DNA of 16,453 nucleotides from Planctomycetota bacterium (lineage in GTDB: Bacteria; Planctomycetota; UBA11346), in contig JBBQSO010000106.1 in NCBI GenBank assembly GCA_038213805.1, forward strand, positions 1 to 16,453. The letters run 5' to 3'. The position numbers were made by a program, and so were the translations under genes. A model generated the notes under the pieces. That model made no database searches and was not told the origin of the DNA. It saw only the letters and a list, made by a program, of their open reading frames with translations. Below are positions 1 through 16,453 of this stretch, piece by piece; the first letter of the stretch is position 1, and each line of letters opens with the position of its first letter.

Positions 1-2340
1 TACCACCGGCGACGCCAGCCGGTGGTGCGCCGGGGGCTGCGCGGCGAGCGCGCACAACCTGGCCGCTGCGGTCGCGGTCTCGACGGCGGTCGCGGCGACC
101 GCCGGGTCGATCCACACGTAGGTCAGACCGTCCGGCAGCGGCACCCGGCCGTTGACCAGCGGCAGCTCGCGGCCATCGGCGCCGCAGGCGCGCTGGACGG
201 CGCACGGCAGCTGGACAGTCGCGGCGGAAGCGGGCGCGCCGCCGTACAGCACCGCGACGCAGCTGCCGTCCTCACCACCGGCGAAGACGCGCGCGAGGAT
301 GACCGGCGCGCCGACGCCGCGCAGATCGCCCAGGTAGTGCCGCCCGCCGAGCGCCGACGCCGCAAACGCGTAGGCGGCCATGCTGCGCAACGGGGTCGCC
401 TCGCGGCCCATCATCCCGAAGTTCTTCGGCCCTTCCTCGTAGGAGACGTAGACGAACGGGAAGTAGCGGGCGACGCCGCAGGCCTTGCTCTCGATCGCCT
501 TGGCGGCGATCTCGATCGCGCTGAGCGCATCCTGGTCGTGCACCGGCCGGCCAGGGCCGGCACCCCAAGGCCAGCCGCACTCGCTGTGCCACAGCGGCAT
601 TCCTGCGACGCCCTGCGTCGCCATCCACGCGCGGTACTTCGCGACCATCGCCTCGACACCCGGCGCGCGATCGTAGGAATGGAAGCTGACCACATCCGCA
701 TCGGCGAGCATGCCATTGGCGGCGCAGGTGTCGAAGTACGGGCCCGGCGGCATGGTCGCGAAGACCCCGGCGACCACCGGGGCTGTCGCGCCGGCCGCGG
801 CCAGGGCATAGCTCACTGCCTTCACCGACGGCGCATACTGCTCGGCGGGCACGGTTTTCAGATCCGGCTCGTTGTCGACCTCGACCGCGCCCCAGGCGCC
901 GCTCCAGTGCTTGGCGATGGCGGTCCACGCGGTGGCGACCGCGGACAGGTCCTGCGCGTACGGCGATGCGGCGATCATGCCGTGGTGCCGGGCGCCACCT
1001 TCGAGGATCTCGAGCACTCCGACGTGGCTGGTGGCGTAATCCGCGCGCAGGTGGTCGAAGGCGCGCCCGCCATCCCAATTGTAGGTGGCGGGCTCGGGGT
1101 TGACCGCGCCCAGGCCCAGCCGCTCGCGCGACATGGCGATGCCGCAGCGCGCCAGGCTGCGCACCAGCGCCGTGCGTCGCAGCGGATCGGGCTCCAGCCA
1201 TGACAGCCCGGAATCCATGCAGAAGAACGGGTCGGCGGGCGCGCGCTGCGCGTCGCTGGCGACGATGCCGAACACCTGGTGCGCCGCGGGGAATGCCACC
1301 TCGGCGTAGCCGCGTGCGAAAACGCGCGTGATGGCGACGGTGCCGACCGGCCCAAGCGTCGCGGTCCCGGCGTCGACCGGCCGGCCATCGTAGCCGCTGA
1401 TGGTGTACGGCACCTGATCCGTCGGCCCGGCGGAGGCGACGCGCCAGCGCAGGGTCGCGGCCTGCCCGGGCGTGACAAAGAAATCCGCATGGTCGAGCGG
1501 GGTGAAACCGCTGGCGGCGGCGCTGGCGATGGCGACGCGCCACGCACTCACCAGGGGCATGCCTGCGGTCACCGGCTGGTTGAAGCGGAATCCCGCCGCG
1601 GTCAGCGCGTCGGTGCGCGTCGCCTGCGGCAGGGCCACAGCGTCAAGCACCACGGTCGCGTTGATCCGCACCGTGGCGGTACGCTGGATGGTGTCGACCA
1701 GCAGGTCGAGGTGGTCGGGAGCCTCAGCGTGCAGCAGCGTGGCATCGTTGTGCGTCACGAGATTGACCGTGCCGGCCTGCAGCGCGTAGCCACCCGCGCT
1801 GACCAGCAGGATGAGTTCGCTGTTCACCCAGAAATCGCCGCTGAGATCGCCGCGGCCCAGGCAGATGGCGGTGAAGCCGCTGCCCGTCGCGCGCACGTCG
1901 GCCTGCACGCGGATGGTGCCGGCGACCAGCGGGATGGCGTGGTGCGCGCCGCCGGCCGTGGTGGCGGTGGCACCGACGGCGGTGATCGAGATGCCAGCGT
2001 TTGCACTCCAGGTGGCGGAGCCTTCCGCCAGGGGCGCTCCAGCCAGAGCCGCATTCGACGCATGGCCTGCGCCGGCCACCAGGGGATCGGCGAAGGTCGT
2101 GATGGCCGAGCCGCGTGCCGTCGCGATGTTCGCGACGGGCGCACCATCCGTCGCCGCTGGAGTCGTCCCTGGCTGATGCGGTGCGGGCGTTTCTTCGCCG
2201 AAGCAGGATGAGAACAGCAACAGCAGGGCAGCTGCGGCAGGGCGGACGGCATGGGTCAAGAGCCAGCTTCGGCGGACATGCGCGCCGTGACCACGTGCAG
2301 GGGTCGAGCAGCGTTGGGAGAGCCCAGAGTGCGACATCAT
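1..2340 (-). CDS. Secreted/lipoprotein clan GH-A glycoside hydrolase (GH39/GH5-like TIM barrel with N-terminal beta-rich domain); 3' end runs off the window
   Basis: Hand-translated frame absent from the ORF track: open from ATG ATG at 2340/2337 (upstream GGATGGAAAC; in-frame TGA at 2395-2397) down to base 1, 780 codons. N-terminus ..VRRSWLLTHAVRPAAAALLLLLFSSCFGEE (signal peptide, possible lipobox FSSC). Motifs: VEVDNEPD (acid/base Glu, 868-870), VVSFHSY, PLWHSECGW (nucleophile Glu, 580-582), KNFGMM. TTG at 2259 is an alternative start. Confidence 0.85.
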   Translation of the reverse strand, partial: MMSHSGLSQRCSTPARGHGAHVRRSWLLTHAVRPAAAALLLLFSSCFGEETPAPHQPGTTPAATDGAPVANIATARGSAITTFADPLVAGAGHASNAALAGAPLAEGSATWSANAGISITAVGATATTAGGAHHAIPLVAGTIRVQADVRATGSGFTAICLGRGDLSGDFWVNSELILLVSAGGYALQAGTVNLVTHNDATLLHAEAPDHLDLLVDTIQRTATVRINATVVLDAVALPQATRTDALTAAGFRFNQPVTAGMPLVSAWRVAIASAAASGFTPLDHADFFVTPGQAATLRWRVASAGPTDQVPYTISGYDGRPVDAGTATLGPVGTVAITRVFARGYAEVAFPAAHQVFGIVASDAQRAPADPFFCMDSGLSWLEPDPLRRTALVRSLARCGIAMSRERLGLGAVNPEPATYNWDGGRAFDHLRADYATSHVGVLEILEGGARHHGMIAASPYAQDLSAVATAWTAIAKHWSGAWGAVEVDNEPDLKTVPAEQYAPSVKAVSYALAAAGATAPVVAGVFATMPPGPYFDTCAANGMLADADVVSFHSYDRAPGVEAMVAKYRAWMATQGVAGMPLWHSECGWPWGAGPGRPVHDQDALSAIEIAAKAIESKACGVARYFPFVYVSYEEGPKNFGMMGREATPLRSMAAYAFAASALGGRHYLGDLRGVGAPVILARVFAGGEDGSCVAVLYGGAPASAATVQLPCAVQRACGADGRELPLVNGRVPLPDGLTYVWIDPAVAATAVETATAAARLCALAAQPPAHHRLASPVV

Positions 2341-2616
2341 GTTTCCATCCCGTGCATGCGGCGGCAGTCGGTCACGTAGGTCAGCCTTGTCAGGTCAGCG
2401 CGGTCGATAATCTGAATGAGTAGACCAAATAGATCTGAATTCGTTGACGGACTTCCTGCAAAATGCCCGATCTCCACCACGCAAATAGGCCCATACCGGC
2501 CCTGAATCGCACGCAGGCTCATTGCTGGTCCGTAAGGTGTGGCGGACAGCGCGTCCCTTCCGCGTGTTCACGGCACGTCGCAGGGACCTTGGCTTGGCAA
2601 ATGCTCTGTGACGGAC

Positions 2617-4353
2617 ATGTCTGATGCGACGCGCGGCACTCACCCCTTGGGTGTTGGCCTTACTGATTTCGAGATCCTGCCTCCCGAACGTATCGGCGCC
2701 TATCGGCTCCTTGAGCGCCTGGGCCGGGGCGGCATGGGTGAGGTCTACCGCGCCGTCCATGAAGTGACCGAGCGGGTCGTCGCGCTCAAGGTCGTCGACC
2801 TTGACGATAACCAGTTGCGCCACCACCTCGAACAGGTCACGCGCGAGGCCATGGCGATGGCCTCGCTCCGCGATGCCCACGTCGTCACCTGCTACAGCTT
2901 CGGCGAAGACGGCCGCAAGCTCTTCCTGGCCTTGGAGCTGATGGCCGGAGGCGATACCGCGCGCATGGTGAAGCAGCGCGGGCAGCCCTGCGCGGAAGCG
3001 GAGATCCGCACGTTCGCCAAGGCCTGCGCCCGGGGCCTGGCGGCGATCCACCGCATCGGTCTGGTGCACCGCGACATCAAGCCCTCAAACATCCTGCTCG
3101 ATGCCGCCGGCAACGCCAAGCTGGGTGATTTCGGCTTGGCCTGCTTCCGCGAGGTCGACGGCCAGGAGCCGGTCCGCACCGAGGTCGGAACTCCAGCATA
3201 CATGCCCCCCGAGTCGATCACCGGCGTGTCCGCTCCTGACATCCGCGGGGACATCTATTCCCTGGGCGTGACCATGTACTTCTGGGCGACGGGCGTCTCA
3301 CCCTTCCGGGACGTCAACGGGTATTCAGCCATGCAGCGGGTGCTTGCAGGGGGATCGCCGCCGATCCATGCGTTCAATCCGGGGATCTCGGACGAGCTCA
3401 TCGCCATCGTCGCGCGGGCGATGCAGCCGGACCGTGAGCACCGCTTCCAGGATCCACTGGCCCTGCTCGCCGCGCTGGAGGGCAAGGAGATTGCTCCGTC
3501 GGTGGTGCCGTTGTCCACCACGCCACGCACGGAGGCTCTCCCCACGCACCCCCGCACGGCAACCAGCAGGCGCTTGATCTGGGCGGGGTTGGCGGTGGTG
3601 GTCCTGGTCGTCGCCATGGTCTCGCTGCGCTCTGCGCCTGCTGCGACCGCGAACACGGTGCCCGTTGCTGGTCTTGCCGCCAGCGCTGGCGGTCCCGCTG
3701 CGAGCGCTCTCGGAGGTGGCTACCGGGTGCCCTGGGTCGGCGACGGCCTGGTCCACTTCCATGAGAACGGCGCGGTCAGCTACACCCAGGCGGGACAGAT
3801 GATCCACCTCGCCGAGGAGGGCTGGCTGGATGGCGAGGCGGCGCCCGCCCTCACCGGACTGCTCGCCAGCACCGGCGATATCTCCGTCGAGCTGGCGCTG
3901 CGCCCGGGCAATCTCAGCCAGGAGGGACCGGCGCGGATCTTCTCCATCGGGCTGACGCCGCGGGCCGCCGATCTGATGATCGGCCAGTCCGGATCCCGTA
4001 TCGAGGTGCGGGTGCGCACCAGCGCCACCAACCCCGATGGCACCAGGCCCAACCTGATCAGCGATGATGGCGTGCTGGATGCGGCCTGGCACCACCTGGT
4101 CTTCATCCGCGCGGGCACCCACCACGCGCTGTTCATCGACGGCACCCTGCGCATGGAATGCGACGTCCCCGGCGACCTCAGCACCTGGAACCGGGACTAT
4201 CCGCTCTGCGTCGGCAACGATCATCGCGGTGGTTTTCCCTGGGCCGGCAGCGTCGAGCGGCTCATCCTGGGCGCCCGGGCGTGGAGCGCGGAGGAGGTCC
4301 GGGCCCGCTATGCGGGCTGGCAGCACGCTATGGTCCACACTCAGGCACGCTGA
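2617..4353 (+). CDS. Membrane Hanks-type Ser/Thr protein kinase with C-terminal extracytoplasmic LamG/concanavalin-A-like domain
   Basis: Kinase motifs LGRGGMGEVY, VALK, HRDIKPSN, DFG, GTPAYMPPE, DIYSLG. TM helix LIWAGLAVVVLVVAMVSL. LamG-type motifs ISVELALRP, WHHLVF, LFIDG, PLCVGN, RAWSAEEV. ATG 2617 is preferred over the track's GTG 2539; start uncertain. Confidence 0.92.
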   Translation: MSDATRGTHPLGVGLTDFEILPPERIGAYRLLERLGRGGMGEVYRAVHEVTERVVALKVVDLDDNQLRHHLEQVTREAMAMASLRDAHVVTCYSFGEDGRKLFLALELMAGGDTARMVKQRGQPCAEAEIRTFAKACARGLAAIHRIGLVHRDIKPSNILLDAAGNAKLGDFGLACFREVDGQEPVRTEVGTPAYMPPESITGVSAPDIRGDIYSLGVTMYFWATGVSPFRDVNGYSAMQRVLAGGSPPIHAFNPGISDELIAIVARAMQPDREHRFQDPLALLAALEGKEIAPSVVPLSTTPRTEALPTHPRTATSRRLIWAGLAVVVLVVAMVSLRSAPAATANTVPVAGLAASAGGPAASALGGGYRVPWVGDGLVHFHENGAVSYTQAGQMIHLAEEGWLDGEAAPALTGLLASTGDISVELALRPGNLSQEGPARIFSIGLTPRAADLMIGQSGSRIEVRVRTSATNPDGTRPNLISDDGVLDAAWHHLVFIRAGTHHALFIDGTLRMECDVPGDLSTWNRDYPLCVGNDHRGGFPWAGSVERLILGARAWSAEEVRARYAGWQHAMVHTQAR

Positions 4354-4395
4354 GCGCTTGGTACAGGCGCCGGCTCGCTGCCGGAGGAGCCGACC

Positions 4396-5526
4396 ATGTT
4401 AGAGATCTGCGCTGATGCCGATGCCGCCCTGATGATCCTCGCTGAAAAGCGCGGTTTGCTGACCCCTGCCCAGATCGAGCAGGTCACGCGCACGCGGGGA
4501 CGCCGCTCAGCCGCCGTCGCCCTGGTCCAGGATGGCATCCTGGACGTGCAGGCGGTGCGTGCACTTCGCACGGCGGTGCGCAAGCACTCCATCGATCATG
4601 CAATAGATGGCTATGAACTGCAGGGCAAGCTCGGCAGCGGGGGCATGTCCGAGGTGTTCAAGGCCATCGACCTGGTTTCGCGCAAGCCGGTGGCGATCAA
4701 GGTCGTCGCGCCGCGTCGCCCGGGTGATGGCCTGTTCCTTGAGCGCTTCCAGCGCGAGGCCCGGGCGGCTTCCGCGGTCGACCACCCCAATGTCATCGCC
4801 TGCTACGGGACCGGGCAGACCCACGGCAAGGCCTACATGGTGCTCGAGTACATGCCCGGTGGCGACCTCGAGGGCCTGGTCGACCGGGCGCAGGGCCGCC
4901 TGGATGAGGCACTGGCGCTGCGTATCGCCAGGGATTGCGCGCGCGGTCTGGTGGCGGTGCATGCCCACGGGCTGGTGCACCGCGACGTCAAGCCCTCGAA
5001 CATCCTGCTGGCCGCCGACGGGACCGCGAAGCTGGGCGATCTTGGTCTGGCCAAGAGCACGGCGCCGGACGACCAGCTCACCATGCCGGGCATGCGCGTG
5101 GGCAGCCCAGGCTATGTCTCGCCGGAACAGGCCAGCGGCGCGAGTGAGACCGACATCCGCAGCGACATCTTCAGCCTGGGTGCGACTCTCCACCATCTGT
5201 TCTCGGGGCGCAGCCCCTTCAGTGGTGGCAGCCCGCTCGAGATCATCATCAACACCATCCGCCTCGATGCGCCACCGCTGAGCGTGACCGCACCCTGGGT
5301 TTCGCCGCGCATCTCGGCGGTGGTCGCGAAATGCCTGGCGCGTCGTCCGCAGGACCGCTACCAGGATCCAAGCGAATTGGCGGATGCGCTGCAGCAGATC
5401 CATGAGGGCGCCCCGGTGCACACCACGGTGCGCCGCGTCCGCCGCTACACCGCCACCAGGGTCACGGCGTGGGGCATGCTCGTGCGCCGGCTGCTGACTG
5501 GCATCGGTCTGCGCCAGGCTGGTTGA
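4396..5526 (+). CDS. Cytoplasmic Hanks-type Ser/Thr protein kinase with short helical N-terminal domain
   Basis: Motifs LGSGGMSEVF, VAIK, RFQREA, HPNVI, HRDVKPSN, DLG, GSPGYVSPE, SDIFSLG. Strong RBS GGAGGAG at 4383-4389, 42 bp downstream of the first kinase. Confidence 0.93.
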   Translation: MLEICADADAALMILAEKRGLLTPAQIEQVTRTRGRRSAAVALVQDGILDVQAVRALRTAVRKHSIDHAIDGYELQGKLGSGGMSEVFKAIDLVSRKPVAIKVVAPRRPGDGLFLERFQREARAASAVDHPNVIACYGTGQTHGKAYMVLEYMPGGDLEGLVDRAQGRLDEALALRIARDCARGLVAVHAHGLVHRDVKPSNILLAADGTAKLGDLGLAKSTAPDDQLTMPGMRVGSPGYVSPEQASGASETDIRSDIFSLGATLHHLFSGRSPFSGGSPLEIIINTIRLDAPPLSVTAPWVSPRISAVVAKCLARRPQDRYQDPSELADALQQIHEGAPVHTTVRRVRRYTATRVTAWGMLVRRLLTGIGLRQAG

Positions 5527-5532
5527 GCGACA

Positions 5533-6828
5533 TCACCGGATCACCACCCGCACCACGTTGCCGGGGATCAGATCAGGCTTGGGCACATCCAAGTCGATGC
5601 GCACGTAGACGGCGCTCGGATCGGTGATGCGGTCGCGCAGCGACGGATGCACCTTGTACTGGATACCGCCGCCGGCCGTGATCCGACCCGGGATGCCGTG
5701 CACGCCGGTGGTCGGGTAGACGGTGACCTGCGCCTTGAGGTGCAGGTCGCGGGCGCGTTCGGGTGGGACGAAGGCGTTGATCCACAGTTTGCCGGTGCCC
5801 GAAACCGACATCAGTTCGGCGTCCTTGGGGACGTTGCTGCCGTCGGTGACGAAGACCTCGGTGACCACGCCGTCGGCGAGTGCCCGGACCTCGGTCGGAC
5901 CCGCGAGCTTGCGCAGGTTGGCGACCCGCGCCTCCAACCCGGCGATGCGCGAGCGAATGTTGTCCAGGCCGCGCTCTCTGATGCGCTGCAGCTCGACGCG
6001 CGCCTGCGCATAGAGCGTGGTCAGGGTGTCCACGTAGCCCTTGCCGACCTCCACCGCGGCCTTGTCCGCCTCTTCTTCACGTGCCTGGCGGGCGTTCTCC
6101 GCCTCCTGGGCTGCGAGCGCGCCGGCGAGCTGGGCCTTGGCATCATCACGTTCGTACAGGGACAGGCGCTCGGCCTTCTGCGCTTCCTCCTCTTCGGCGG
6201 GCAGCGCTGCGCCCTGCGCCAGCAGCGCCTGCACCACCGCGAGACGCTTCCCACGCTCCTCGACCAGGCCGTCGCGGAACGAGACCTGCCTGGTCAGGCG
6301 CTCGATCTCCTGCTTCTGCCGCGCTGCAGTGGTCTCGCGCTCGCGGGTGGTAGTCTCGGCGTGCCGCTGGAGCTCATTCAGGCGGCTGCGCGCGCCTTCC
6401 AGATCGCGCATCTCGACCGCGGGGTCATCGAAGGCAGCCTGCTTCTGCTCGACCATGGTCTCGAGAATGCCGCGCTGCTGCACCAGGATCTCCTGCGCTT
6501 CCTTCAGCTCGGTCTGCGCGTCGTCGGAGACCAGCACGCACAACACGGTGTCCGCCGCCACACGGTCGCCGGGCTCGGCGTGCACACTCACGACGCGCGA
6601 GCGTACCGGGGCGTGGAACACCTCGACGCCAGTGGCGACCACGCCATAGCTGTAGATGTTCTCGCGATCATAGAGCCACCACGCCAGCATCGCGATGAGC
6701 GCGAGTGCCAGGGCAGCAAGCAGGATTTTACCCATCGGCAGCGGGTGCGGACGCGCCGCCTTCATCGCCGTCTGTTCGGGGGAGACCGGCGCCTGCTGCT
6801 TGGCGTTGGGGGCGAACGTGAGCTTCAT
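5533..6828 (-). CDS. HlyD-family membrane fusion/periplasmic adaptor protein (431 aa)
   Basis: Start re-called at ATG 6828 (MKLTFAPN), which overlaps the upstream stop as ATGA. TM ILLAALALALIAMLAWWLY; lipoyl half-motifs APVRSRVVSVHAEPGDRV and ALADGVVTEVFVTDGSNV flank a ~208-aa E/Q/R/A-rich coiled coil; C-terminal barrel LWINAFVP..LIPGNVVRV. Confidence 0.88.
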   Translation of the reverse strand: MKLTFAPNAKQQAPVSPEQTAMKAARPHPLPMGKILLAALALALIAMLAWWLYDRENIYSYGVVATGVEVFHAPVRSRVVSVHAEPGDRVAADTVLCVLVSDDAQTELKEAQEILVQQRGILETMVEQKQAAFDDPAVEMRDLEGARSRLNELQRHAETTTRERETTAARQKQEIERLTRQVSFRDGLVEERGKRLAVVQALLAQGAALPAEEEEAQKAERLSLYERDDAKAQLAGALAAQEAENARQAREEEADKAAVEVGKGYVDTLTTLYAQARVELQRIRERGLDNIRSRIAGLEARVANLRKLAGPTEVRALADGVVTEVFVTDGSNVPKDAELMSVSGTGKLWINAFVPPERARDLHLKAQVTVYPTTGVHGIPGRITAGGGIQYKVHPSLRDRITDPSAVYVRIDLDVPKPDLIPGNVVRVVIR

Positions 6829-9800
6829 GGCGGATTCCCTGGGAGGTGCGGCGGCGCTGCGGGCTGGGTCGGCGATGGCGGTGCGGGCATCACGGCGGCG
6901 AGATCGTGGATGGCGGTGCGGTGGCTCGGTGACGTCCCGCCGCTCAGCGTGGCCAGGCTGTGGCGCAGGGCGTCGAGCCGCGCCGGCGTGATCCCGCGCA
7001 GCGTCTCGTCCGCGGGCGATCCGGAGCCCAACTCGATGCCGAACTCGAGCTCCTTGGGCCAGACCGAGAGCGCTTCCCTGGCGAGTGCGATGACCCGTTC
7101 CGGGTCGGCGCTGTAGCACAGCGCGGTGGCGCCATCCGTGGTGGCGGCGATGGCCGTCAGCAGATCGCGCTGCTCGGCGCGGAAGAACTGTGCTGGGCAG
7201 TCCACCCACAGCGTCGCCGGCTGTTGCGTGCGCGCTGCGCGCAGCAATTCAAGATAGCGGTTCGTCAGCGCCGCGCGGCGCTCGCCACCAGCGGCCCAAC
7301 CCGGGTCCGCCTGCGGCTCCAGGTCCAGTTTCAGGCCCTGGAAGCGGTGCGCGGCGTGCTCTTGGAACGCGGCCAGGCGTCGGCATGCGGGGGCGAGGCC
7401 ATCGGCGCCCTGCAGCCACTCCGGTTCGCCGAGCAGCGCCCAGACCGCTATCCCGGCCTGCTCGGCGCTGGCGATGAACTCCCCGATGGAGGTGGCGGAT
7501 TCGCCCTCCAGGACGGTGCCCGTGGCGCCGATGTAGAGGTAGATGCGATTGATGTGGGCGGTCGTGGCGGTGGCGAGTGCCGCCACCCCATGGTCTGCGA
7601 GGAGTTCGTCGCGGTGCCAGGCCCACGTCGATGCCGGTGCGGTAATCCCCGCGGCGTGGTCCACGTCATCACCGCCCGGGGCGGTCACGCCGGCGCCCGG
7701 CGCAGCAATTGCGGGTGCAGGTGCTGCGCTGAGTCCTTGTGCGAGCATGGCGGCGAGACCCTGGGCCTGGCTGATGCGGATGTAACGCTCAGCCACCAGC
7801 TGCCAGGCGTCCGCCTGCGCGCGGTGCGCCAGCAGCGCCGTCCGCTCGATGTCGATCAGCCCGGTCGCGGTGAGCGGGGCGTCACCACCCACTTGGCCAC
7901 GCTCAGCGCGCAGGTGCGCCACGCGCAGCGTTTCCTGCGCCGCGCGCAGCGCCGCGCGCCCCGCGTCCAGCTCGCCGCGCGCCTGATGGTAGGCGGCCCA
8001 CGCCTCGGCAAGATCGTGGCGGATGACCAGGGCCGCAGCCTCCTCGCCAGAGCGCAGAGCCTCCTGGAGGCGCTCCTGGTAGGCGCGGTCGAGATCGCGG
8101 TCCTTGAACCACCCGAGCGGCAGATTGCCGGACAGGCCCAGGCTGGTGAAGTCGTCGACCGGGTCGGTGCCGTAACGCGCCGAGTAGGAATACCCGGCGC
8201 TGACCGCGACCGTGGGTCGGTAGCGTGAGCCGGCCTGAGACGAGAAGAACGCCTCGCGCAGCGCCGCGTGCGCGGCGCTCATGGCCGGATGGTTGAGCAG
8301 CGCGACCCGCAGCAGGTCGGGATACTCATCGACCGGCAGTTCCCAGGATGCCGGCGCTCCCGGCTCGGTGGGGGTGCCCGCAGCAAGCCCGCACAGGCCA
8401 AGGATGCGCTCGCGCAGGATCCGCTGCCAGCGCTCATCGCTGGCCACATCGCCCCGGCGCTTGACCCGTTCCTGCTCCAGGATCAGGTCCTGTTCCAGGC
8501 CAGAGCGGCCGGCCTTGCGCTGCTGGTCGATCACGCCGGCCGCGCGTTCCGCCAGCGCCGCAAGATCACGATCGCGATCCAGTCGCTGCCCATACGCCTG
8601 CCAGGCGACGAAGGCCAGCGCCGCATCTGCCTGTTGGCGGTTCACCTCTTCGGCCAGCGCGTCGCGGGCGATGCTCGCGCGCACGACGCCCGCTTCGCTC
8701 AGGGCGTGGTTGCGGTCCCATTCGAAGAGCGGCTGTGTGACCCCAAGCACCCCGCGCAGCACGTTCTGGGCGAGGTAGTCGCCAGAAAAGGTGGTGGGAT
8801 TGGTGAAGATCCCGACCGCGGGTGTGTAAAAGGCCCCGAAATTGAGCGTCGGCAGATTCGCCAGACGCAGCTGCCGCGCCTCGATGAGCGCCGCGGCAAG
8901 CAGGGCGCGACGCCGCAGCACGGCCGGATTGCGCGCCTCGACCAGGGCGGCCACGTCCTTCAATTCAAGATGCTGCGGGATTTCGATCAGCCGCGGTCGC
9001 AGGTGGCCGTCGACGGTGGCGAAGGCGATGCCCGTTTGGGGACCGGCCGTGACGGCGCCTTGGGCGTCCTCCTTCCAGGGGACGGGCGCGGAAGCATCCA
9101 GTCCGCAGTGGAAGAGCTGGAAGCTGCCGGCCGGATCAGCTGCGAAGACCATGCCGGTGCCATCCGCGCGCAGGCTGCGTACATCGTAAGCTTGGCCCGC
9201 TAGCAGCGCGCGCGGCGCCTGGCCCTCGGCATCCATGGCCATCAGCAGGTGGTGCGCATCATCGGCGCGATGCAGCCACGCCACCGCGCCGCTACTGCCA
9301 ACGGCGATGGGCAGCGCGTTGCCGCCATCGCTGGTCAGCCGGGCACTGCCGGCGTTGCCGACCTGCCCCTGGTCCACGGTGAAATCGAAGCGGAACACGT
9401 CGAGCGCACCATCGCCCAGCGTCTTCCCGACCAGCAGGCTGCGGAAGATCCGGCACTGCGGACCCGCCACCGCCGTGAAGCGGAAGGTGCGCGGATCGAG
9501 CAGCCAGGGCCCGCCCACGCCCGGCTGCGTGCGTATGGCGAAGAGCGCGACGTCCTCGCGCCCGACGTCTTCCGCACCAGGCTCGCGCGGCAGGGGGTCG
9601 GCGCCGGATGGATCCAGACGAAAGCCCACCATGCGGATGCCGTCCCGGCCGAGATCATCGACCAGGCGCTGATCCCCGCTGGCCAGCGGTTGGGCGAGCC
9701 CCGTGTAGAGCCGCCGCTGCGCGGCGTCATCGGATTCCTGCTCGACGGCGGCCTGGTCACGGCGTGCACACGCGGCCAGGACGAGACCGAGCAGCGCAGC

Positions 9801-9884
9801 CAGCCCGAGGAGCGGCAGCACCGGGCGCGTGCGCCTGCCGGACGTCGCCGGGCAGCGTGGGGACATGGTTGGGGGCCTGCTCAT
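6825..9884 (-). CDS. TolC-family outer-membrane efflux lipoprotein fused to an N-terminal TolB-like propeller region and a C-terminal glycoside-hydrolase-like TIM barrel (1019 aa)
   Basis: Lipobox LAAC (Cys39, 9768-9770). Two OEP repeats: ARNPAV..LPTLNF..VTQPLFEW and LLNHPAM..RPTVAV..GNLPLGW. Ala/Pro linker, then TWAW..NRIYLY..GIAVWALLGEPEW..RFQGLKLDLEP. ATGA overlaps at both ends. Confidence 0.85.
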   Translation of the reverse strand: MSRPPTMSPRCPATSGRRTRPVLPLLGLAALLGLVLAACARRDQAAVEQESDDAAQRRLYTGLAQPLASGDQRLVDDLGRDGIRMVGFRLDPSGADPLPREPGAEDVGREDVALFAIRTQPGVGGPWLLDPRTFRFTAVAGPQCRIFRSLLVGKTLGDGALDVFRFDFTVDQGQVGNAGSARLTSDGGNALPIAVGSSGAVAWLHRADDAHHLLMAMDAEGQAPRALLAGQAYDVRSLRADGTGMVFAADPAGSFQLFHCGLDASAPVPWKEDAQGAVTAGPQTGIAFATVDGHLRPRLIEIPQHLELKDVAALVEARNPAVLRRRALLAAALIEARQLRLANLPTLNFGAFYTPAVGIFTNPTTFSGDYLAQNVLRGVLGVTQPLFEWDRNHALSEAGVVRASIARDALAEEVNRQQADAALAFVAWQAYGQRLDRDRDLAALAERAAGVIDQQRKAGRSGLEQDLILEQERVKRRGDVASDERWQRILRERILGLCGLAAGTPTEPGAPASWELPVDEYPDLLRVALLNHPAMSAAHAALREAFFSSQAGSRYRPTVAVSAGYSYSARYGTDPVDDFTSLGLSGNLPLGWFKDRDLDRAYQERLQEALRSGEEAAALVIRHDLAEAWAAYHQARGELDAGRAALRAAQETLRVAHLRAERGQVGGDAPLTATGLIDIERTALLAHRAQADAWQLVAERYIRISQAQGLAAMLAQGLSAAPAPAIAAPGAGVTAPGGDDVDHAAGITAPASTWAWHRDELLADHGVAALATATTAHINRIYLYIGATGTVLEGESATSIGEFIASAEQAGIAVWALLGEPEWLQGADGLAPACRRLAAFQEHAAHRFQGLKLDLEPQADPGWAAGGERRAALTNRYLELLRAARTQQPATLWVDCPAQFFRAEQRDLLTAIAATTDGATALCYSADPERVIALAREALSVWPKELEFGIELGSGSPADETLRGITPARLDALRHSLATLSGGTSPSHRTAIHDLAAVMPAPPSPTQPAAPPHLPGNPP

Positions 9885-11434
9885 GCCTTCGGCGCTCCGC
9901 GACCGTGCGAGATCTCGTCATCGGCCAACACCAGCAGGTCGCTGGCGGTGGTGCTTCCCGGGGCCAGCGCGCCCACCGCATCGTGCATCAGTGCCTGGGC
10001 GTCGGCGTGTTCCGCGCGCGCGACAACCACGGCGATGATCAGTTCCTCGGCCATCTGCCCGGCGTCGCTGCGCGCCTGGAACACCGCCGAGATGCGCTGC
10101 GCCACCACCTCGGCGCCGGCGAGCGGCGTGGACGGCAGCATCAGGGCGAGCGTGCCCTCTTCCCAGATGCACGGCACATCCAGGGTGCGCAAGCCCGTCG
10201 TGGCCGCCTTCCACAGCTCCTGGACATAGTGCATGTAGCCGTCCAGACCGCCGCTGCGCACGTCCTCCAGCCGCGTGGCGCGCACCATCACCAGCGACAC
10301 CGGCGTGGTATAGCGCTTCAGCCGCTCCAGCTCGCGCTGCAGCGAATAGAGGAAGAAACTCTTGGCGTAGAGGCCGGTGCCGGCCTTGCGCAACACATTC
10401 GCCATATCCCAGCCGGAGAGGTCCTGGGCCGCCACCACCTCATCGGCCCGCGGGGTGAGGTCATAGGCGTAAACCAGTCGCTCGACCGTGCGCTCCGGTT
10501 CGACATGGGTCTTGCAGGAATGGCAGCGCGCCTGCACGCGCGTCTCGGATGAGATGAAGGCGCAGCTCCGGCACACGTAGCAGCCCGTGGGCTTCTCGTA
10601 GTCGCGGCCGATCTGGCGCAGCTGCACGCGGCACTTCGGGCAGACCAGGTCCTGCCCCTGGGTGAAGTTCGAGAGCGTGTCCATGTGTGCGCAGGCGAAG
10701 TGGTGAATGATGGTCTCGCGCACGAAATCGACGGAGCCGCACCGCGCGCACGACTCGCCATAGCTGAGCTGGTGGCAGGCGCACGACGGGCAGGCGCGCA
10801 GCCGTTCGACGATGGTGCGCTTGCAGATGCCCTGCTGAACCAGGCGTTCGAGCAGCGCGACCTGGTCGACGGCCATGCCCAGGGTGCGCGCGACCTGGGG
10901 GTAACGCCAGCCGTCGATGTCGTCCACCGTCAGCTGTGGCTGCACGCTGCGCTGCCCGGATTCGATCAGCGCGCCGACCAGGTCGAGACAGCGCTGATCG
11001 TCCAGCGGCGGGCGGTTGCGGGCGAGCACGTGCAGCAGGGTGCGCTCGATCTCCGCGAGCAGCGCGGCGCGCGACCTGGGCAACTCGAACACGCGGTCGC
11101 GGCCGGCCCGCAGTCCGCCGGCGGCCGCCGCCGCGACGTCCTGGACCAGGTAGAGCACGGCAGAGAGGTTGCCACGCAGGGCGGGGTGGCGCGCCAGTTC
11201 ACCCATCGGCGAGGCGCCGGTGATGGCGACGATGCACAGGTCGTAGTGGCGGTCGGTGATGCCGATCTCCCACGTACCGCTCAGCACCACCCCCTCGACC
11301 TCGAGCGGGACGACCGTGGCATCGCCGTGGCCCAGCACCGGGACCACGCGCAGTTCGGCACCGATGGTCTCGCGCAGCTCGAGGCAGCCGAGGTCGTCAT
11401 CGCAGATCAGCAGGATGCGGCAGGGTTCGCTCAC
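9881..11434 (-). CDS. Pseudo-receiver + TackOD1-like multi-Zn-ribbon + degenerate GGDEF protein (probable c-di-GMP receptor)
   Basis: REC-like ILLICDDD..YDLCIVAI..FELP. Cys/His pairs CPSC, CARC, HFAC, CPKC, CRSC, CHSC (10514-10792). GGDEF-fold signature TGLYAKSFF..LQRELERLKRY..SLVMV and RTLD-VPCIW-EEGTL (10148-10189). GTG start with GGAG upstream. Confidence 0.85.
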   Translation of the reverse strand: MSEPCRILLICDDDLGCLELRETIGAELRVVPVLGHGDATVVPLEVEGVVLSGTWEIGITDRHYDLCIVAITGASPMGELARHPALRGNLSAVLYLVQDVAAAAAGGLRAGRDRVFELPRSRAALLAEIERTLLHVLARNRPPLDDQRCLDLVGALIESGQRSVQPQLTVDDIDGWRYPQVARTLGMAVDQVALLERLVQQGICKRTIVERLRACPSCACHQLSYGESCARCGSVDFVRETIIHHFACAHMDTLSNFTQGQDLVCPKCRVQLRQIGRDYEKPTGCYVCRSCAFISSETRVQARCHSCKTHVEPERTVERLVYAYDLTPRADEVVAAQDLSGWDMANVLRKAGTGLYAKSFFLYSLQRELERLKRYTTPVSLVMVRATRLEDVRSGGLDGYMHYVQELWKAATTGLRTLDVPCIWEEGTLALMLPSTPLAGAEVVAQRISAVFQARSDAGQMAEELIIAVVVARAEHADAQALMHDAVGALAPGSTTASDLLVLADDEISHGRGAPKA

Positions 11435-11452
11435 GGGAGGGCTCCAAGCGGT

Positions 11453-12778
11453 TCAGAAGCGCGGCGCGTTGCGCCAGGCGGATTGCGGCAGGAAGGGATC
11501 CTGCTGGTTGAGGCGCAGGATCTCCATCACGGTGGCGTAGATGCGCACCCAGCGGAAGAACACCTCGTTGTAGAGCGGCAGGAGCGGCGCCCACGCCAGC
11601 ATCCACAGCTCATCACGCCGGCGCTCGCTGGATACCAGCGCGGTGGTCACGCTCAGCGTCGACAGCAGCGCATAGACGGCCAGGCAGATGGCCATGACGC
11701 CGACCAGCACGACGGGCGCGACGACGATCATGACCGCCAAGTAGACCACATAGAGCAGGTTCGCGATCACCGAGACCAGCAGCACCTGCCCGAGTTCGAC
11801 CGCCATCAGGAACCCATATCGGCGTCCGTTGAGCAGCTCGAGGTGCTTGCGGAAGGCCACCCGCACCAGGTCGCGGTCCCAGCGGATGCGCTGGCGGACC
11901 AGCGTCTTCAGGTTCTCCGGGACATCGGTGGTCGCGATGGCGCGCGGGGCGAATACCGTGCGCCACCCCGCGCGGTGCGCCTTGAGTGTGTTGTCGAGAT
12001 CCTCAGCCGTCGCCACATCGCAACCTCCAAAACCATCAAACGCCGCGCGGCGGTAGGACACACAAGCCCCGCTGGCGATATAATTGGTGCCGAACAGGCC
12101 AAGCCAGCGCCGGTGCAGGCCGATGGCGATCACGTACTCCACCGCCTGCATGCGCGTCCAAAACGAGGCCGCATGGTTCCGCACCTTGAGGTTGCCCGCA
12201 ACCACCGCCACCCGCGGGTCGCAGAAGGGGCCGATGAGGTGCCGCAGCAGGTCGCGATCGAAAGAGGTGTCGACGTCGAGAAAGACGAGGAACTCGCCAT
12301 TGGCCATGCGCGTGCCGAGGTTCTGGCCACTCGGCTTGCCGCCGCGCCCAGTGGCGGCCGAATTGCGCACCAGCCTGATCAAGCCGCGCTGCGCGTAGGG
12401 CAGGGCGCGCGCATAGGTGCGATCTTCCGAACCGTCATCGACCACGATGATCTCAAGGTTCGGGAAGCCGGTCTCGAGCAGGGATTCGATCGCGGGAATC
12501 ACCGCGGCCTCTTCGTTGTACCCCGCCAGCACGACGCTCACGCGCGGCGCGGTGGCCAGGAAGCGATCATGTGCGGCCGAGGTATCCCGCGGCAGGCCGA
12601 GGGAACGCATGACCAGCAGCACTACGGACGGACCGAGGAAGCGCCGCAGATCGAAGAGGATGAATGGCAGGAAGACGACCAGCAGCCACCAGCCCTGCTC
12701 GCCGCAGTACTGTATCCACCCATGCCAGGCCTCTGCGCAGGCGAAGCGTATACGGTCAAGGAGATCAAGCAGCCCCAT
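11453..12778 (-). CDS. Processive family-2 glycosyltransferase (PgaC/IcaA/HasA/Alg8-like polysaccharide synthase)
   Basis: Motifs GYNEE, VVDDGSED, GGK, FLDVD (DxD), SGA, AEDLD (TED-like) and QRIRW (QxxRW, 11879-11893). N-terminal TM and several C-terminal TM helices. Confidence 0.92.
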   Translation of the reverse strand: MGLLDLLDRIRFACAEAWHGWIQYCGEQGWWLLVVFLPFILFDLRRFLGPSVVLLVMRSLGLPRDTSAAHDRFLATAPRVSVVLAGYNEEAAVIPAIESLLETGFPNLEIIVVDDGSEDRTYARALPYAQRGLIRLVRNSAATGRGGKPSGQNLGTRMANGEFLVFLDVDTSFDRDLLRHLIGPFCDPRVAVVAGNLKVRNHAASFWTRMQAVEYVIAIGLHRRWLGLFGTNYIASGACVSYRRAAFDGFGGCDVATAEDLDNTLKAHRAGWRTVFAPRAIATTDVPENLKTLVRQRIRWDRDLVRVAFRKHLELLNGRRYGFLMAVELGQVLLVSVIANLLYVVYLAVMIVVAPVVLVGVMAICLAVYALLSTLSVTTALVSSERRRDELWMLAWAPLLPLYNEVFFRWVRIYATVMEILRLNQQDPFLPQSAWRNAPRF

Positions 12779-12852
12779 GCACGGAATCCCGGGTGGCGGT
12801 GACGGACCCGGGGAGCATCCGGATGCGGCTCCCTAGATCAACGATTCGAAAA

Positions 12853-12903
12853 GCAGACGTGCAGGATGCACGCAGGGCGGTTTTCGCAGACGTGCATTTT
12901 GCA
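12853..12903. promoter_or_regulatory. Tandem operator-like repeat GCAGACGTGCA-N3-TGCA x2 upstream of the GT2 gene
   Basis: Copies at 12853-12870 and 12886-12903 (33-bp period). Copy 1 contains the perfect dyad CGTGCA-GGA-TGCACG (12858-12872). Lies 75-125 bp upstream of the GT2 start. Confidence 0.55.
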
Positions 12904-13034
12904 GCCGTGTTCGCCAGGTCCCCGTAACCGGAACGGGCCAGCCTCGTCTATGGCCCGTGCATGGCGAATGTGTGAAGTTGATGATGGCAGCGCTCTCAGC
13001 GCGTCGGTCATGCGGGATGGCGCGCCGGGGCGCC

Positions 13035-13050
13035 AGTCCGCATGCGGACT
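13035..13050. repeat. 16-bp perfect palindrome AGTCCGCATGCGGACT
   Basis: Exact self-complement in the epimerase-GT2 intergenic region, about 45 bp past the epimerase stop. Function unknown. Confidence 0.5.
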
Positions 13051-13093
13051 TAGGCCATACGTCCCATCGTCGATGGCCCTCAGCTGGCGGTCC

Positions 13094-14047
13094 TCAGCGC
13101 AGGCAATCGCCGATCATCGCACCGAGATCCAGCCCCTGCTTCCAGCCGGTAAGCCGCTGCAGCTTGCGGATGTCGGGCACGCGCCGGCGCATGTCCTCGA
13201 ACCCGCCCTGGGGGAAGGCCTCGGCGTAGGGGACGTCGCGGATGCGCGAATTGCTGCCGGAGGTCGCGATCACGCGCTCGGCGAGGGCGCGCATGCTGAT
13301 CTCCTCGCCACCCCCGATGTTCACCACCTCGCCCACCGCCGCCGGGCACGCGAGCAGGGCGACGATGGCGGCGACCGCATCGGCGACGTGCAGGAAGCAG
13401 CGGCTCTGCGCGCCGTCGCCGTGCACCTCCACGTCGTGGCCGCTGCGCGCCGCCTGGCAGAAGCGCGGCAGGACCATGCCGTAGGCACCCGACTGGCGCG
13501 GCCCGGTGACGTTGAAGAAGCGCCCGATGACGACCGGCAGGCCGCGCTCGCGGTGGTAGGCCAGCGCCTGGAACTCGTCCAGCAGCTTGGAACAGGCGTA
13601 GCTCCAGCGATGCAGGCGGCTGGCGCCCAGCACGCTGTCATCGTCCTCCGCGAACGGGGTGCGCTCAAGCTTGCCGTAGACCTCGCTGGTCGAGGCCAGG
13701 AACAACGGCAGCCGGCCGTGGGCGGTGGCGGCGCGCAGCACCACCTCGGTCCCGCGCACGTTGGTGACGATCGACGCCACCTGGCGCTCAAGGATGCGCC
13801 GCACCCCGACGGCCGCGGCGAGGTGGATCACCGCGTCGACGTTGGCGCAGGCCTCGTCGACCACCAGCTCGTCGCAGACCGAACCGTGGATCACGCTCAA
13901 CCGCGCATCGTGCGCCGCCGCACGCAGATTGCTGAAATCCCCCGTGCTGCCGTCGTCGATCACCGTCACCGCCGACCCGCGGGCGAGCAGCCATTCGACG
14001 AGATGACTGCCGATGAAGCCGGCTCCGCCGGTGACGAGGTAGCGCAT
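13094..14047 (-). CDS. NAD-dependent NDP-sugar epimerase/dehydratase/decarboxylase (extended SDR, ArnA/UXS-like), 317 aa
   Basis: Start re-called at ATG 14047: MRYLVTGGAGFIGSHL. Motifs HLAA, ASTSEVYG, RWSYACSK (YxxxK), RFFNVTGPRQ, GDGAQSRCF, DMRRRVPD. Confidence 0.93.
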   Translation of the reverse strand: MRYLVTGGAGFIGSHLVEWLLARGSAVTVIDDGSTGDFSNLRAAAHDARLSVIHGSVCDELVVDEACANVDAVIHLAAAVGVRRILERQVASIVTNVRGTEVVLRAATAHGRLPLFLASTSEVYGKLERTPFAEDDDSVLGASRLHRWSYACSKLLDEFQALAYHRERGLPVVIGRFFNVTGPRQSGAYGMVLPRFCQAARSGHDVEVHGDGAQSRCFLHVADAVAAIVALLACPAAVGEVVNIGGGEEISMRALAERVIATSGSNSRIRDVPYAEAFPQGGFEDMRRRVPDIRKLQRLTGWKQGLDLGAMIGDCLR

Positions 14048-14560
14048 GGCGAGGGACGCTAGGGAGGGTCCGCGCGGTCGCCATGGAGAGTTTGCAGTGG
14101 GTTGGGCGGGCCCCTTCCCCGCAGCCCTGGTTGCAAACTTGGCGCTGTACCGGAGGGAGCGCGAGGCGGATGTGGCGGTCCGGCCGGCCCAGTTCAAGAC
14201 CCGCGGCGAAGGAGTGGGAACCAATGACCCGGGTCGCGCGACCAGTTTTGGCGCCTCCTGGCGATGGGCTGCAGTAGGGTGTCAGCGTTCAACCGCGAGT
14301 ACGCGTACATGAACGCTGCCTTAGGAGCAGACGCCTAAGACGAAAAGGCGTAAAGAGCATTAAGACCGGAATGAAGTCATAACGGCATTTAAGAGACACG
14401 CGCATAAAACGCTGCAATGCGCAGGACCATAAAACCGCACAATCTTGCATTACGCAGCACACAGAAAACAGCAGACGGGCAAAAGCCCGACGAGCTTGTG
14501 TTTAATCCAAACACGCACCTGGTACGGTTCCCGCTACACAGTTCAAACCGGAGATCCTTC

Positions 14561-15385
14561 ATGACGTTCCAGTCCATACCCCTTTCTCTGCTCACACTCC
14601 TCGCAGGACTTTGCTGCTCGGCTCAAGGAGCCGACAACCAGAACAATAATTCGCAGCTCGGAAACACCGATAACGCCGGCAGTTCGAATAACGGATCGCT
14701 GAATTTATTCGATCGCGGCGGCCCGGTCGGATACTGGGCATTCGACGAGGGCAAGGGTTCCGTAGCCCATGACTCGAGTGGCAATGGCTACGACGGGACC
14801 ATCGTCGGCGCATTATTCACCCCTGGCGTGATCGGCACTGCGCTCGAGATGGGCCAGGACCGCTATGTCATGATCGGACGCGAGAAGGAACTCGCTCTCT
14901 CCGATACTATCACCATCGCGGCGTGGGTGCGGGCTGGCGACGCAGGCGAGACCTCCTTTATGCGCATCCTCTCCAAAAAAGCGGACTTTCCCACTCGCGA
15001 TGGGTACGAGATGGAGTACAATTTCCGTACGGGGGAACTTGATGTCATCGGCAGCGGCGACCTCATTTGCCGCGCCTCCGGCGTCCATCTGGATGGCAAC
15101 TGGCATCATCTCACGGGAGTGATCGACAAGGACAGGGGCCATCTCTACGTGGATGGCATCGAGCGTCCAAGCACCGGACTGGTCGGTAAGCCCAAAAAAG
15201 ACAAGACCACCCCGGTGGTCATCGGACGACTCGCCGGCAAGCCATTCGCTTTTTTCTACCGCACGCTGGATGAAGTGCGGCTCTATGACTATGCCCTGAC
15301 GCCCGCCGAAGTTGCGGCGCTGGTGCTGCTCAAGTCGCCACTTTCGGGTGGCGGCCTTCTGGGCCTTCCCAATGGGAATGGATGA
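14561..15385 (+). CDS. Secreted LamG/concanavalin-A-like lectin-domain protein (274 aa)
   Basis: Start re-called at ATG 14561 (GGAGA at 14550-14554). Signal peptide MTFQSIPLSLLTLLAGLCCSAQG|AD; Asn-rich linker; motifs VGYWAFDEG..DSSGNG..TIAAWV..WHHL..LYVDG..LDEVRLYDYALTPAEV. Confidence 0.9.
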   Translation: MTFQSIPLSLLTLLAGLCCSAQGADNQNNNSQLGNTDNAGSSNNGSLNLFDRGGPVGYWAFDEGKGSVAHDSSGNGYDGTIVGALFTPGVIGTALEMGQDRYVMIGREKELALSDTITIAAWVRAGDAGETSFMRILSKKADFPTRDGYEMEYNFRTGELDVIGSGDLICRASGVHLDGNWHHLTGVIDKDRGHLYVDGIERPSTGLVGKPKKDKTTPVVIGRLAGKPFAFFYRTLDEVRLYDYALTPAEVAALVLLKSPLSGGGLLGLPNGNG

Positions 15386-16086: not shown

Positions 16087-16453
16087 TTACAACGAGCCCA
16101 GGAATGCCATCAGTGCTTGCACGTCGTTGTCCTTGAGGCCATCAAATGCGGCGATCACCGCCGCGGCCTCGCCGCCGTGCGCCTCGATGGCCTGGCGGAG
16201 GGTGGTCATGCTCTGATCGTGGAGGAAGCCGACGCGGAAGCGCAGGCCCCACAGCGGCGGGGTCTTCACTTCGAAAGCGCCCGCGCCCGACTGCGCCACG
16301 CTGTTGCCCGTGCCGACGTCATGCAGCAGCAGATCGGAATAGAGATTCACCGGCTGGTTGGACAGGTAGGGATACTGGCTCACCCCGGTCCGCATGGTCG
16401 GAACATGGCAAATGGCGCACCCGGTGGTGGCGAAGACCTTCTCGCCCTTCTGG
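16087..16453 (-). CDS. Di-heme oxidoreductase (DHOR / thiol-oxidoreductase-like) family protein, C-terminal part; 5' end outside the window
   Basis: Frame extends to the window edge: QKGEKVFATTGCAICHVP (CxxCH at 16405-16419), YSDLLLHDVG, KTPPLWG, FLHD, AIEAHGGEA, LMAFLGSL*. Confidence 0.9.
   Translation of the reverse strand, partial: QKGEKVFATTGCAICHVPTMRTGVSQYPYLSNQPVNLYSDLLLHDVGTGNSVAQSGAGAFEVKTPPLWGLRFRVGFLHDQSMTTLRQAIEAHGGEAAAVIAAFDGLKDNDVQALMAFLGSL

Follow-up and report, generated by a model that had tools for sequence, protein, structure and literature searches.

A planctomycete operon of the Mxd family with a predicted TolC-type channel fused to a GH18-like barrel

Can a polysaccharide synthase take the place of a pump and hand its product to an adaptor and a TolC-type channel encoded in the same operon? 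The question is raised by four packed genes on the minus strand (5533-12778) of a 16,453-nucleotide stretch of DNA from a Planctomycetota bacterium (assembly GCA_038213805.1, contig JBBQSO010000106.1; hereafter the window). In order, they encode a family 2 glycosyltransferase (GT2), a regulator with a TackOD1 domain, an outer-membrane factor (OMF) fused to a hydrolase-like domain, and a HlyD-type membrane-fusion adaptor (MFP). An initial annotation had read them as a tripartite GT2–HlyD–TolC conduit switched by cyclic di-GMP (c-di-GMP) and had known of no characterized system with this combination. The mechanism is plausible and largely anticipated in print, and the claim of novelty did not stand: the regulator–GT2–MFP core matches the genetically characterized mxdABC genes of Shewanella, the kind of match that the initial annotation itself had named as refuting, and a c-di-GMP-switched GT2–HlyD–TolC model has been published, in papers cited below, for BgsBA–TolC and XcsAB–TolC. 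The operon is probably an Mxd-family locus whose synthase-made polysaccharide leaves through its own adaptor and TolC-type channel. What it adds to known systems is a dedicated, predicted TolC-family lipoprotein fused to a barrel resembling glycoside hydrolase family 18 (GH18).

Results

The Mxd core of the operon

By the sequences of its regulator, synthase and adaptor, the operon is a member of the Mxd family. The regulator combines a TackOD1 multi-CxxC zinc ribbon (residues 148-326) with a dead GGDEF domain (353-490), and its N-terminus looks receiver-like by eye, with no Pfam match there. MxdA of S. oneidensis MR-1 (P0420, AAN57153.1 / SO4180) carries the same two Pfam domains (TackOD1 5e-71, GGDEF 1e-4); it is 24% identical to the window regulator over 298 aa (E = 7e-22) and has it as its only match in the same genome. 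Locus L071, whose regulator is 76% identical to MxdA, has the order regulator–GT2–MFP–small gene, the same as that described for mxdABCD in PMC3691769, and its GT2 matches the window GT2 in the source genome at 1e-45, the next best at 2e-8. The window adaptor, with a single transmembrane segment at 28-54 after a short cytoplasmic N-terminus, aligns over residues 1-430 with the profile of seven MxdC-like proteins (hhalign, 99.2%, E = 3e-19); pairwise BLAST to an MxdC-like protein is weak (E = 1e-4).

The GT2 shows the motifs DDGS (D115), DVD (168-170), TAEDLD (257-262) and QRIRW (296-300). Its hydrophobic stretches fall at about 30-57 and 321-383, and by Pfam it has no PilZ or other appended domain. 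Its best NCBIfam matches, both under cut-off, are PgaC/IcaA (1e-44) and NodC (4e-32). In a 35-row tree, kept from 70 rows by leaving out BgsA, ApsS, three GT2s of the same genome and redundant rows, the 27 TackOD1-linked GT2s form one clade (support 100/97) with PgaC, NodC and deacetylase–GT2 fusions outside it; in an earlier quick tree of all 70 rows, a long-branch ApsS-like row fell inside the Mxd group (support 83). A poly-N-acetylglucosamine (PNAG)/Pga system was rejected on this separate clade and on the score against the PgaC equivalog TIGR03937, 153 bits where the cut-off is 422. The Pga partners PgaD, PgaA and PgaB were not found among the window proteins and the selected flanking or cluster proteins of relatives.

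Two side observations concern other GT2s. The sister group of the Mxd clade includes proteins of ~1,100 aa with the GT2 at the end (L090:2817-6119, L092:1739-5089, L093:3802-7209); in two of the three, a DxDxE motif of the GH18 type lies close to the start, a different arrangement of the same two activities. A second GT2 of the window's genome (L096:5333-9727; C71:9332-13726) groups with a BgsA-like protein in the 70-row quick tree; it lies behind a kinase gene and is convergent to a HlyD-type gene, possibly as another pump-less synthase–adaptor pair.

The shared features with Shewanella mxdABCD are a regulator with TackOD1 and a dead, RxxD-bearing GGDEF domain, the GT2 clade, the MFP and a tight pump-less operon. 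The differences lie in gene order (GT2–regulator–OMF–MFP, not A–B–C–D), a longer regulator N-terminus, a longer coiled coil in the MFP, the added TolC-family OMF with its GH18-like domain and the absence of an mxdD-like gene. The small gene of L071 encodes a 129-aa protein with no match in the source genome; since most relatives have no mxdD-like gene after the MFP, mxdD was treated as not defining.

As the initial annotation had described, the four genes are co-oriented and coupled: 18 bp separate the GT2 and regulator genes, ATGA overlaps join the regulator to the OMF fusion (9881-9884) and the OMF fusion to the MFP (6825-6828), and a convergent gene, identified here as a kinase gene, ends at 5526, 6 bp from the end of the MFP gene. 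Third-position GC is 0.83-0.93 across these genes and the epimerase gene upstream. The reported lack of a transporter, Wzx/Wzy or porin was also borne out, no ABC, RND, MFS, Wzx/Wzy or TPR-porin family being matched among the 10 window proteins scanned (Pfam, NCBIfam). A type I secretion system or tripartite efflux pump was rejected for want of a cognate ABC, RND or MFS transporter in the cluster.

Table 1. Coordinates of the operon, its predicted domains and sites, and the upstream epimerase gene
Feature	Position	Strand	Details
GT2 synthase, MxdB family	11453-12778	-	441 aa; Pfam PF00535 4e-28
Regulator, MxdA family	9881-11434	-	517 aa, GTG start; Pfam PF18551 7e-44, PF00990 3e-5
Predicted c-di-GMP I-site RxxD (R416-T-L-D419)	10178-10189	-	Motif alignment
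OMF fusion	6825-9884	-	1019 aa; Pfam OEP PF02321 7e-21, two stretches
Signal peptide, lipobox-like LAAC (Cys39)	9768-9884	-	Read by eye
N-terminal domain of OMF fusion, residues ~41-293	9006-9764	-	~250 aa
Two OEP (TolC-family) repeats	8475-8960 and 7890-8318 (span 7890-8960)	-	Pfam
GH18-like TIM barrel, residues 744-997, LKLDLEP	6894-7655	-	Fold model, profile alignment
MFP, MxdC family, HlyD-type	5533-6828	-	431 aa; HlyD_3 PF13437 2e-12
NAD-dependent NDP-sugar epimerase/dehydratase	13094-14047	-	317 aa; accessory; Pfam/NCBIfam

A predicted c-di-GMP site without a cyclase motif

The regulator is predicted to carry a c-di-GMP site in a domain that has lost the cyclase motif, in line with the degenerate GGDEF receptor of the initial annotation. 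Its RxxD stands five residues ahead of the loop that would hold GGDEF; this loop has the sequence EEGTL (425-429), on which an active diguanylate cyclase was rejected, and the GG[DE]EF motif occurs in 0 of 465 full-length TackOD1 proteins. RxxD, by contrast, is present in 270 of 287 homologs and in 30 of 38 paired loci, and is intact in 17 of the 20 planctomycete rows of that 38-row alignment. MxdA is described as a c-di-GMP binder and effector (PMC11395469, PMC7666153), its NVDEF motif as analogous to GGDEF (PMC13713693). In our register, set by a small profile of five canonical GGDEF domains and recovered in the alignment of MxdA with the window regulator, which covers MxdA residues 358-400, NVDEF falls on the upstream DxDxF strand and not on the GGDEF loop. 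At the true loop position MxdA has TRDGL, preceded by RVTD (387-390), the RxxD site, which aligns on RTLD of the window.

The window's genome encodes two diguanylate cyclases with intact GGEEF and an HD-GYP-type protein; no EAL match was found in this 90% complete assembly. A Planctomycetes bacterium is on record with a protein that shares 94% identity with the regulator, and the TackOD1 family counts 1,391 clusters (50% identity) at E up to 1e-10 and 681 up to 1e-30. TackOD1 was defined as a double-zinc-ribbon-like domain of obscure function in PMC5847659, the only mention by name in the literature searched, which here and below leaves most subscription papers outside.

The TolC-type fusion

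The third gene encodes the part for which, in the literature searched, we found no counterpart in print, either as an Mxd-linked OMF or as an OMF–hydrolase fusion. Its putative lipoprotein signal and N-terminal domain were not named in the initial annotation. A Cys at the lipobox place recurs in L017, L021, L022, L024, L043 and L045, and the N-terminal domain occurs in 9 of the 30 planctomycete loci, whereas the other locus groups lack it. A likeness to TolB/PD40 beta-propellers is a weak lead, and a firmer call was rejected (Atlas scores of 0.78-0.81, where a lead requires 0.9). The OEP region is divergent, with TIGR01844 under cut-off.

The C-terminal domain had been read as a hydrolase in the initial annotation, and several lines point to a GH18-like fold. 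The predicted fold, from a 16-sequence alignment, is a TIM barrel with a predicted local distance difference test (pLDDT) score of 92; the top Foldseek match is the GH18 chitinase 6k7z (TM 0.64), followed closely by many other barrels, and the Atlas links the domain to GH18-like clusters at 0.95. The barrel profile matches PDB 10yv ('Putative GH97 from Cellulomonas fimi') along its full length (E = 1e-17), and the next sequence matches are GH18 enzymes (E = 0.003-0.015); no mention of 10yv was found in the literature searched. With GH18 chitinases the barrel shares the (beta/alpha)8 fold. Of their catalytic motif, DxxDxDxE, a DxE is kept in 15 of 16 rows, D854 and E856 aligning with the GH18 catalytic DxE, and the first Asp of DxDxE is replaced by His or Lys. 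The barrel also differs from these enzymes in its fusion to an OMF. Direct alignment to two GH18 domains gave 26% (hhalign, E = 7e-4), and no protein passed the Pfam GH18 cut-off (PF00704; 1.7e-5 in L040).

The channel–enzyme fusion recurs in Planctomycetota, Bacteroidota and one proteobacterial-type locus: the two parts form one protein in 10 planctomycete loci, in L063 and L065 (OEP by Pfam) and in L084. In L035, L040 and L046 the barrel has a gene of its own, which in the Methylocystis locus L035 lies between the MFP and TolC genes.

Conservation of the locus

By the Pfam cut-off, TackOD1 is present in 13 of 41 relatives; across the phylum it occurs in 24 of 401 genomes, in Bacteroidota in 10 of 301, and in control genomes in 0 of 14. 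We compared 30 planctomycete loci, 10 from Bacteroidota, 11 from proteobacterial plasmids (out of 20 plasmid records matched) and 14 MxdA-like ones from metagenomes (a fifteenth was a chance match and was dropped), detecting the parts with locally built profiles; one archaeal locus was viewed apart. A GT2 lies beside TackOD1 in 22/30, 10/10, 11/11 and 14/14 of these loci, and an MFP is present in 17/30, 10/10, 10/11 and 13/14, respectively. All four parts occur together in 13 of the 30 planctomycete loci and 5 more break off at contig ends; the gene-neighbourhood search proposed in the initial annotation found conserved synteny. Among partial planctomycete loci, one lacks the MFP, two lack the OMF and one consists of a GT2 with a separate barrel gene. 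Gene order varies; the parts stay together. The MFP is a dedicated family that accompanies the GT2 across three phyla, even where no OMF is linked.

Other arrangements were seen along the way. TackOD1 regulators without GT2 or MFP nearby are found at L018:9357-10844, L025:9234-10721, L028:3631-5757 and L052:3394-4914, and in genome G085 the parts seem to be split over two contigs (L046, L050). The Bacteroidota loci L057-L060 and L062 combine the cluster with a two-component block and a DUF4114 protein; they place a ~420-aa protein without a Pfam match before the MFP, in the OMF position, and the three regulators of this group that were aligned have lost RxxD. Nucleotide-sugar genes differ between clusters (UDP-sugar dehydrogenase, GalE, uridylyltransferase, epimerase; L040:3972-5282, L044:6309-7625, L057:7882-9243, L068/L070 galE, L047:11887-13290, L080:527-1546), and the polymer may therefore differ between lineages. 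An Mxd-type regulator and GT2 (L030:8539-10899) lie on a 29-kb mobilizable plasmid of Aeromonas caviae, which indicates that the module can be mobile.

Relation to known export systems

The concept of pump-less synthase–MFP–TolC export is not new: the route has been proposed for other bacteria, and is rarely encoded in one operon. A GT2–HlyD–TolC conduit switched by c-di-GMP was proposed for rhizobial BgsBA–TolC in PMC13438883, where tolC is reported as required for a c-di-GMP-activated mixed-linkage glucan and a BgsA–BgsB–TolC complex is put forward. In its genetic layout, the window shares with this system a GT2, a HlyD-type MFP and a TolC-type OMF without an ABC, RND or MFS pump, together with a predicted c-di-GMP switch. 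It differs from it in three respects. BgsA has a C-terminal domain with which it senses c-di-GMP itself, whereas the window GT2 has none and is paired with a putative separate receptor; the BgsA-like protein (L086, taken to be bgsBA from its position and gene content) falls outside the Mxd group in the 70-row quick tree; and the Bgs tolC is an unlinked general one without fused hydrolase, where the window has a dedicated OMF with a hydrolase-like domain.

The XcsAB–TolC model of the cyanobacterial XcsABC cellulose system (Maeda 2018, as cited in PMC8892547 and PMC12430437) shares with the window a synthase, a HlyD-like adaptor, a TolC-like exit, an accompanying glycanase and c-di-GMP control, the last two being predicted for the window. 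Its synthase is of the PilZ-type cellulose class and its endoglucanase a separate gene, whereas the window GT2 lacks PilZ and the hydrolase is fused; according to PMC12430437, the T. vulcanus genes are scattered and the model is without experimental validation. Membership of the Bgs/Xcs family was rejected, as the window GT2 has no self-sensing PilZ or C-terminal domain and the BgsA-like protein lies outside the Mxd group.

PelD is a degenerate GGDEF receptor of c-di-GMP for a synthase, and Pel and BcsE systems export through TPR/porin or PelBC and not through MFP–OMF. Both share the dead GGDEF with RxxD and lack the TackOD1 zinc ribbon of the window regulator. BcsE is described as such a catalytically dead sensor for its synthase in PMC8892547.

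Neighbouring genes

The initial annotation had placed a nucleotide diphosphate (NDP)-sugar enzyme ahead of the cluster. An epimerase gene does lie upstream; it is 315 bp from the GT2 gene, is not tightly coupled and occurs in that place in only 4 of 30 planctomycete loci (L023, L026, L027, L029), and was rejected as a core part on these grounds.

A tandem Ser/Thr kinase pair (kinase–LamG, kinase; window 2539-5526, plus strand) adjoins the operon. Its best-match counterparts flank the operon in L024, L027 and L026, where they have moved to the upstream side, and other kinases, not best-match counterparts, flank L021 and L045. Of 9 same-family loci, which are kin and not independent, 5 thus have a kinase next to the operon, as against ~11% of random genome blocks (63 kinase open reading frames); phosphoregulation by these neighbours is possible. 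Further out, the contig edge truncates a secreted-looking protein of at least 780 aa (1-2340, minus strand); it matched nothing in Pfam or NCBIfam and, read by eye, resembles a barrel of the glycoside hydrolases (VDNEP motif). The window also encodes a LamG-domain protein (14417-15385, plus strand) and has a cut di-haem oxidoreductase gene (16087-16452, minus strand); in L023, too, such a gene precedes the epimerase.

Discussion

We propose that an MxdA-type partner, on binding c-di-GMP, would switch on a GT2 that polymerizes a biofilm polysaccharide, regulator and synthase being presumably in contact. The synthase would replace the pump as the inner-membrane partner of adaptor and TolC, and the chain would enter the operon's own adaptor and pass from there into the TolC-type channel encoded with it. 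The NodC/PgaC-like synthase and the GH18-type DxE together suggest a polymer with N-acetylated sugars. From the topology of TolC, we infer that the hydrolase domain is periplasmic, where it may trim or clear leaked or stalled chains; AlgL and BcsZ, which clear leaked chains, are the model for this role. That all of this forms one self-contained Mxd machine, in which the synthase drives an N-acetylhexosamine (HexNAc) polymer through its own adaptor into a glycanase-bearing TolC channel, we put forward tentatively, as a possibility that falls a little short of probable. As the Bgs and Xcs papers do, we infer direct coupling of synthase, adaptor and TolC.

A number of observations weigh against this reading. 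Beside TackOD1, two of 30 planctomycete loci have an MFP and no GT2, and six, two of them near contig ends, have neither. An OMF is rare in proteobacterial Mxd loci (1/11 plasmid; 1/14 metagenome, L084, by Pfam), most of which lack it, and a linked TolC is therefore no defining feature; L024, L026, L044 and L051 have an OMF without the hydrolase domain. The OEP region had no phmmer match to a solved TolC structure, and a single-sequence model of the whole 1019-aa fusion was unusable (pLDDT 36.8). RxxD losses fall mostly in Bacteroidota, where 5 of 8 regulators lost it, and in truncated forms. If the adaptor–TolC duct is sealed, a hydrolase on its outside would have no access to the chain, and the Bgs study still allows an indirect role of TolC (PMC13438883). 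MxdB and MxdC of MR-1 were represented by L071 in our comparisons, and the genomes sampled are related to one another and not independent, which makes the counts descriptive and not a test.

That adaptor and TolC fusion serve a pump encoded elsewhere, for protein, small molecules or the envelope, with an indirect role in polymer export, seems unlikely. Besides the indirect role left open for Bgs, the genome holds ~9 other RND genes, two of which (C146, C1:58174) have no OMF listed nearby; an ABC exporter, the sole export pump among 83 selected flanking or cluster proteins scanned (of 345 unassigned open reading frames), lies 3.4 kb upstream of the L020 cluster, and the plasmid annotation of L035 shows a divergent MFS pump flanking the cluster. 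However, that MFS pump has its own MFP and OMF, most of the other RND genes adjoin an MFP gene, and no pump lay inside any of the clusters examined, the 83 scanned proteins included. The OMF is moreover fused to a sugar-hydrolase fold, and the MFP travels with the GT2 whether or not an OMF is present.

Alternatively, the TackOD1 protein could be a zinc-ribbon signalling or transcriptional regulator, or respond in this lineage to phosphorylation in place of c-di-GMP, and not act as an allosteric partner of the synthase. Its resemblance to double zinc ribbons of obscure function (PMC5847659), the stand-alone copies (L018, L025, L028, L052 and the archaeal L037), receiver fusions in Roseibium and Palleronia, the RxxD losses in Bacteroidota, the kinases beside same-family operons and a genome with only two cyclases and no EAL match would all fit. 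We nevertheless judge it improbable, given the RxxD intact here and in most planctomycete rows, a regulator gene that usually abuts or overlaps the GT2 gene, and the binding of c-di-GMP by MxdA, whose control is described as post-transcriptional (PMC13713693, PMC11395469). Quite improbable, finally, is a NodC-like GT2 making oligosaccharides or a lipid-linked glycan, exported by the TolC duct with the GH18-like domain setting length: the GT2 has only 441 aa, few transmembrane segments and a NodC match, the hydrolase is built onto the exit channel and the Mxd product is termed no more than 'probably an exopolysaccharide' (PMC7666153), but PgaC, a long-polymer synthase, also has 441 aa and scores higher, mxdA and mxdB mutants neither aggregate nor form three-dimensional biofilms (PMC3691769), and no conserved acyltransferase or deacetylase was found in the clusters examined.

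The proposed export of a synthase-made polysaccharide through an own adaptor and TolC-type channel bears on a wider question. Whether TolC conducts polysaccharide directly is stated as open in PMC13438883 (2026) and PMC12430437 (2025), in part because tolC is unlinked and pleiotropic in the Bgs and Xcs systems; with a dedicated, translationally coupled OMF, the operon makes direct conduction testable with four genes and one clean deletion. The present comparison places a Shewanella biofilm locus that has been little studied within a wide family and gives TackOD1 a characterized member in MxdA, and the fused GH18-like domain is a potential tool for identifying the Mxd polymer. If the self-contained Mxd machine is real, it would reveal the missing outer-membrane exit of Mxd, MFP–OMF export would be a general class of synthase-dependent secretion, and TackOD1 proteins would be c-di-GMP switches of an uncharacterised polymer.

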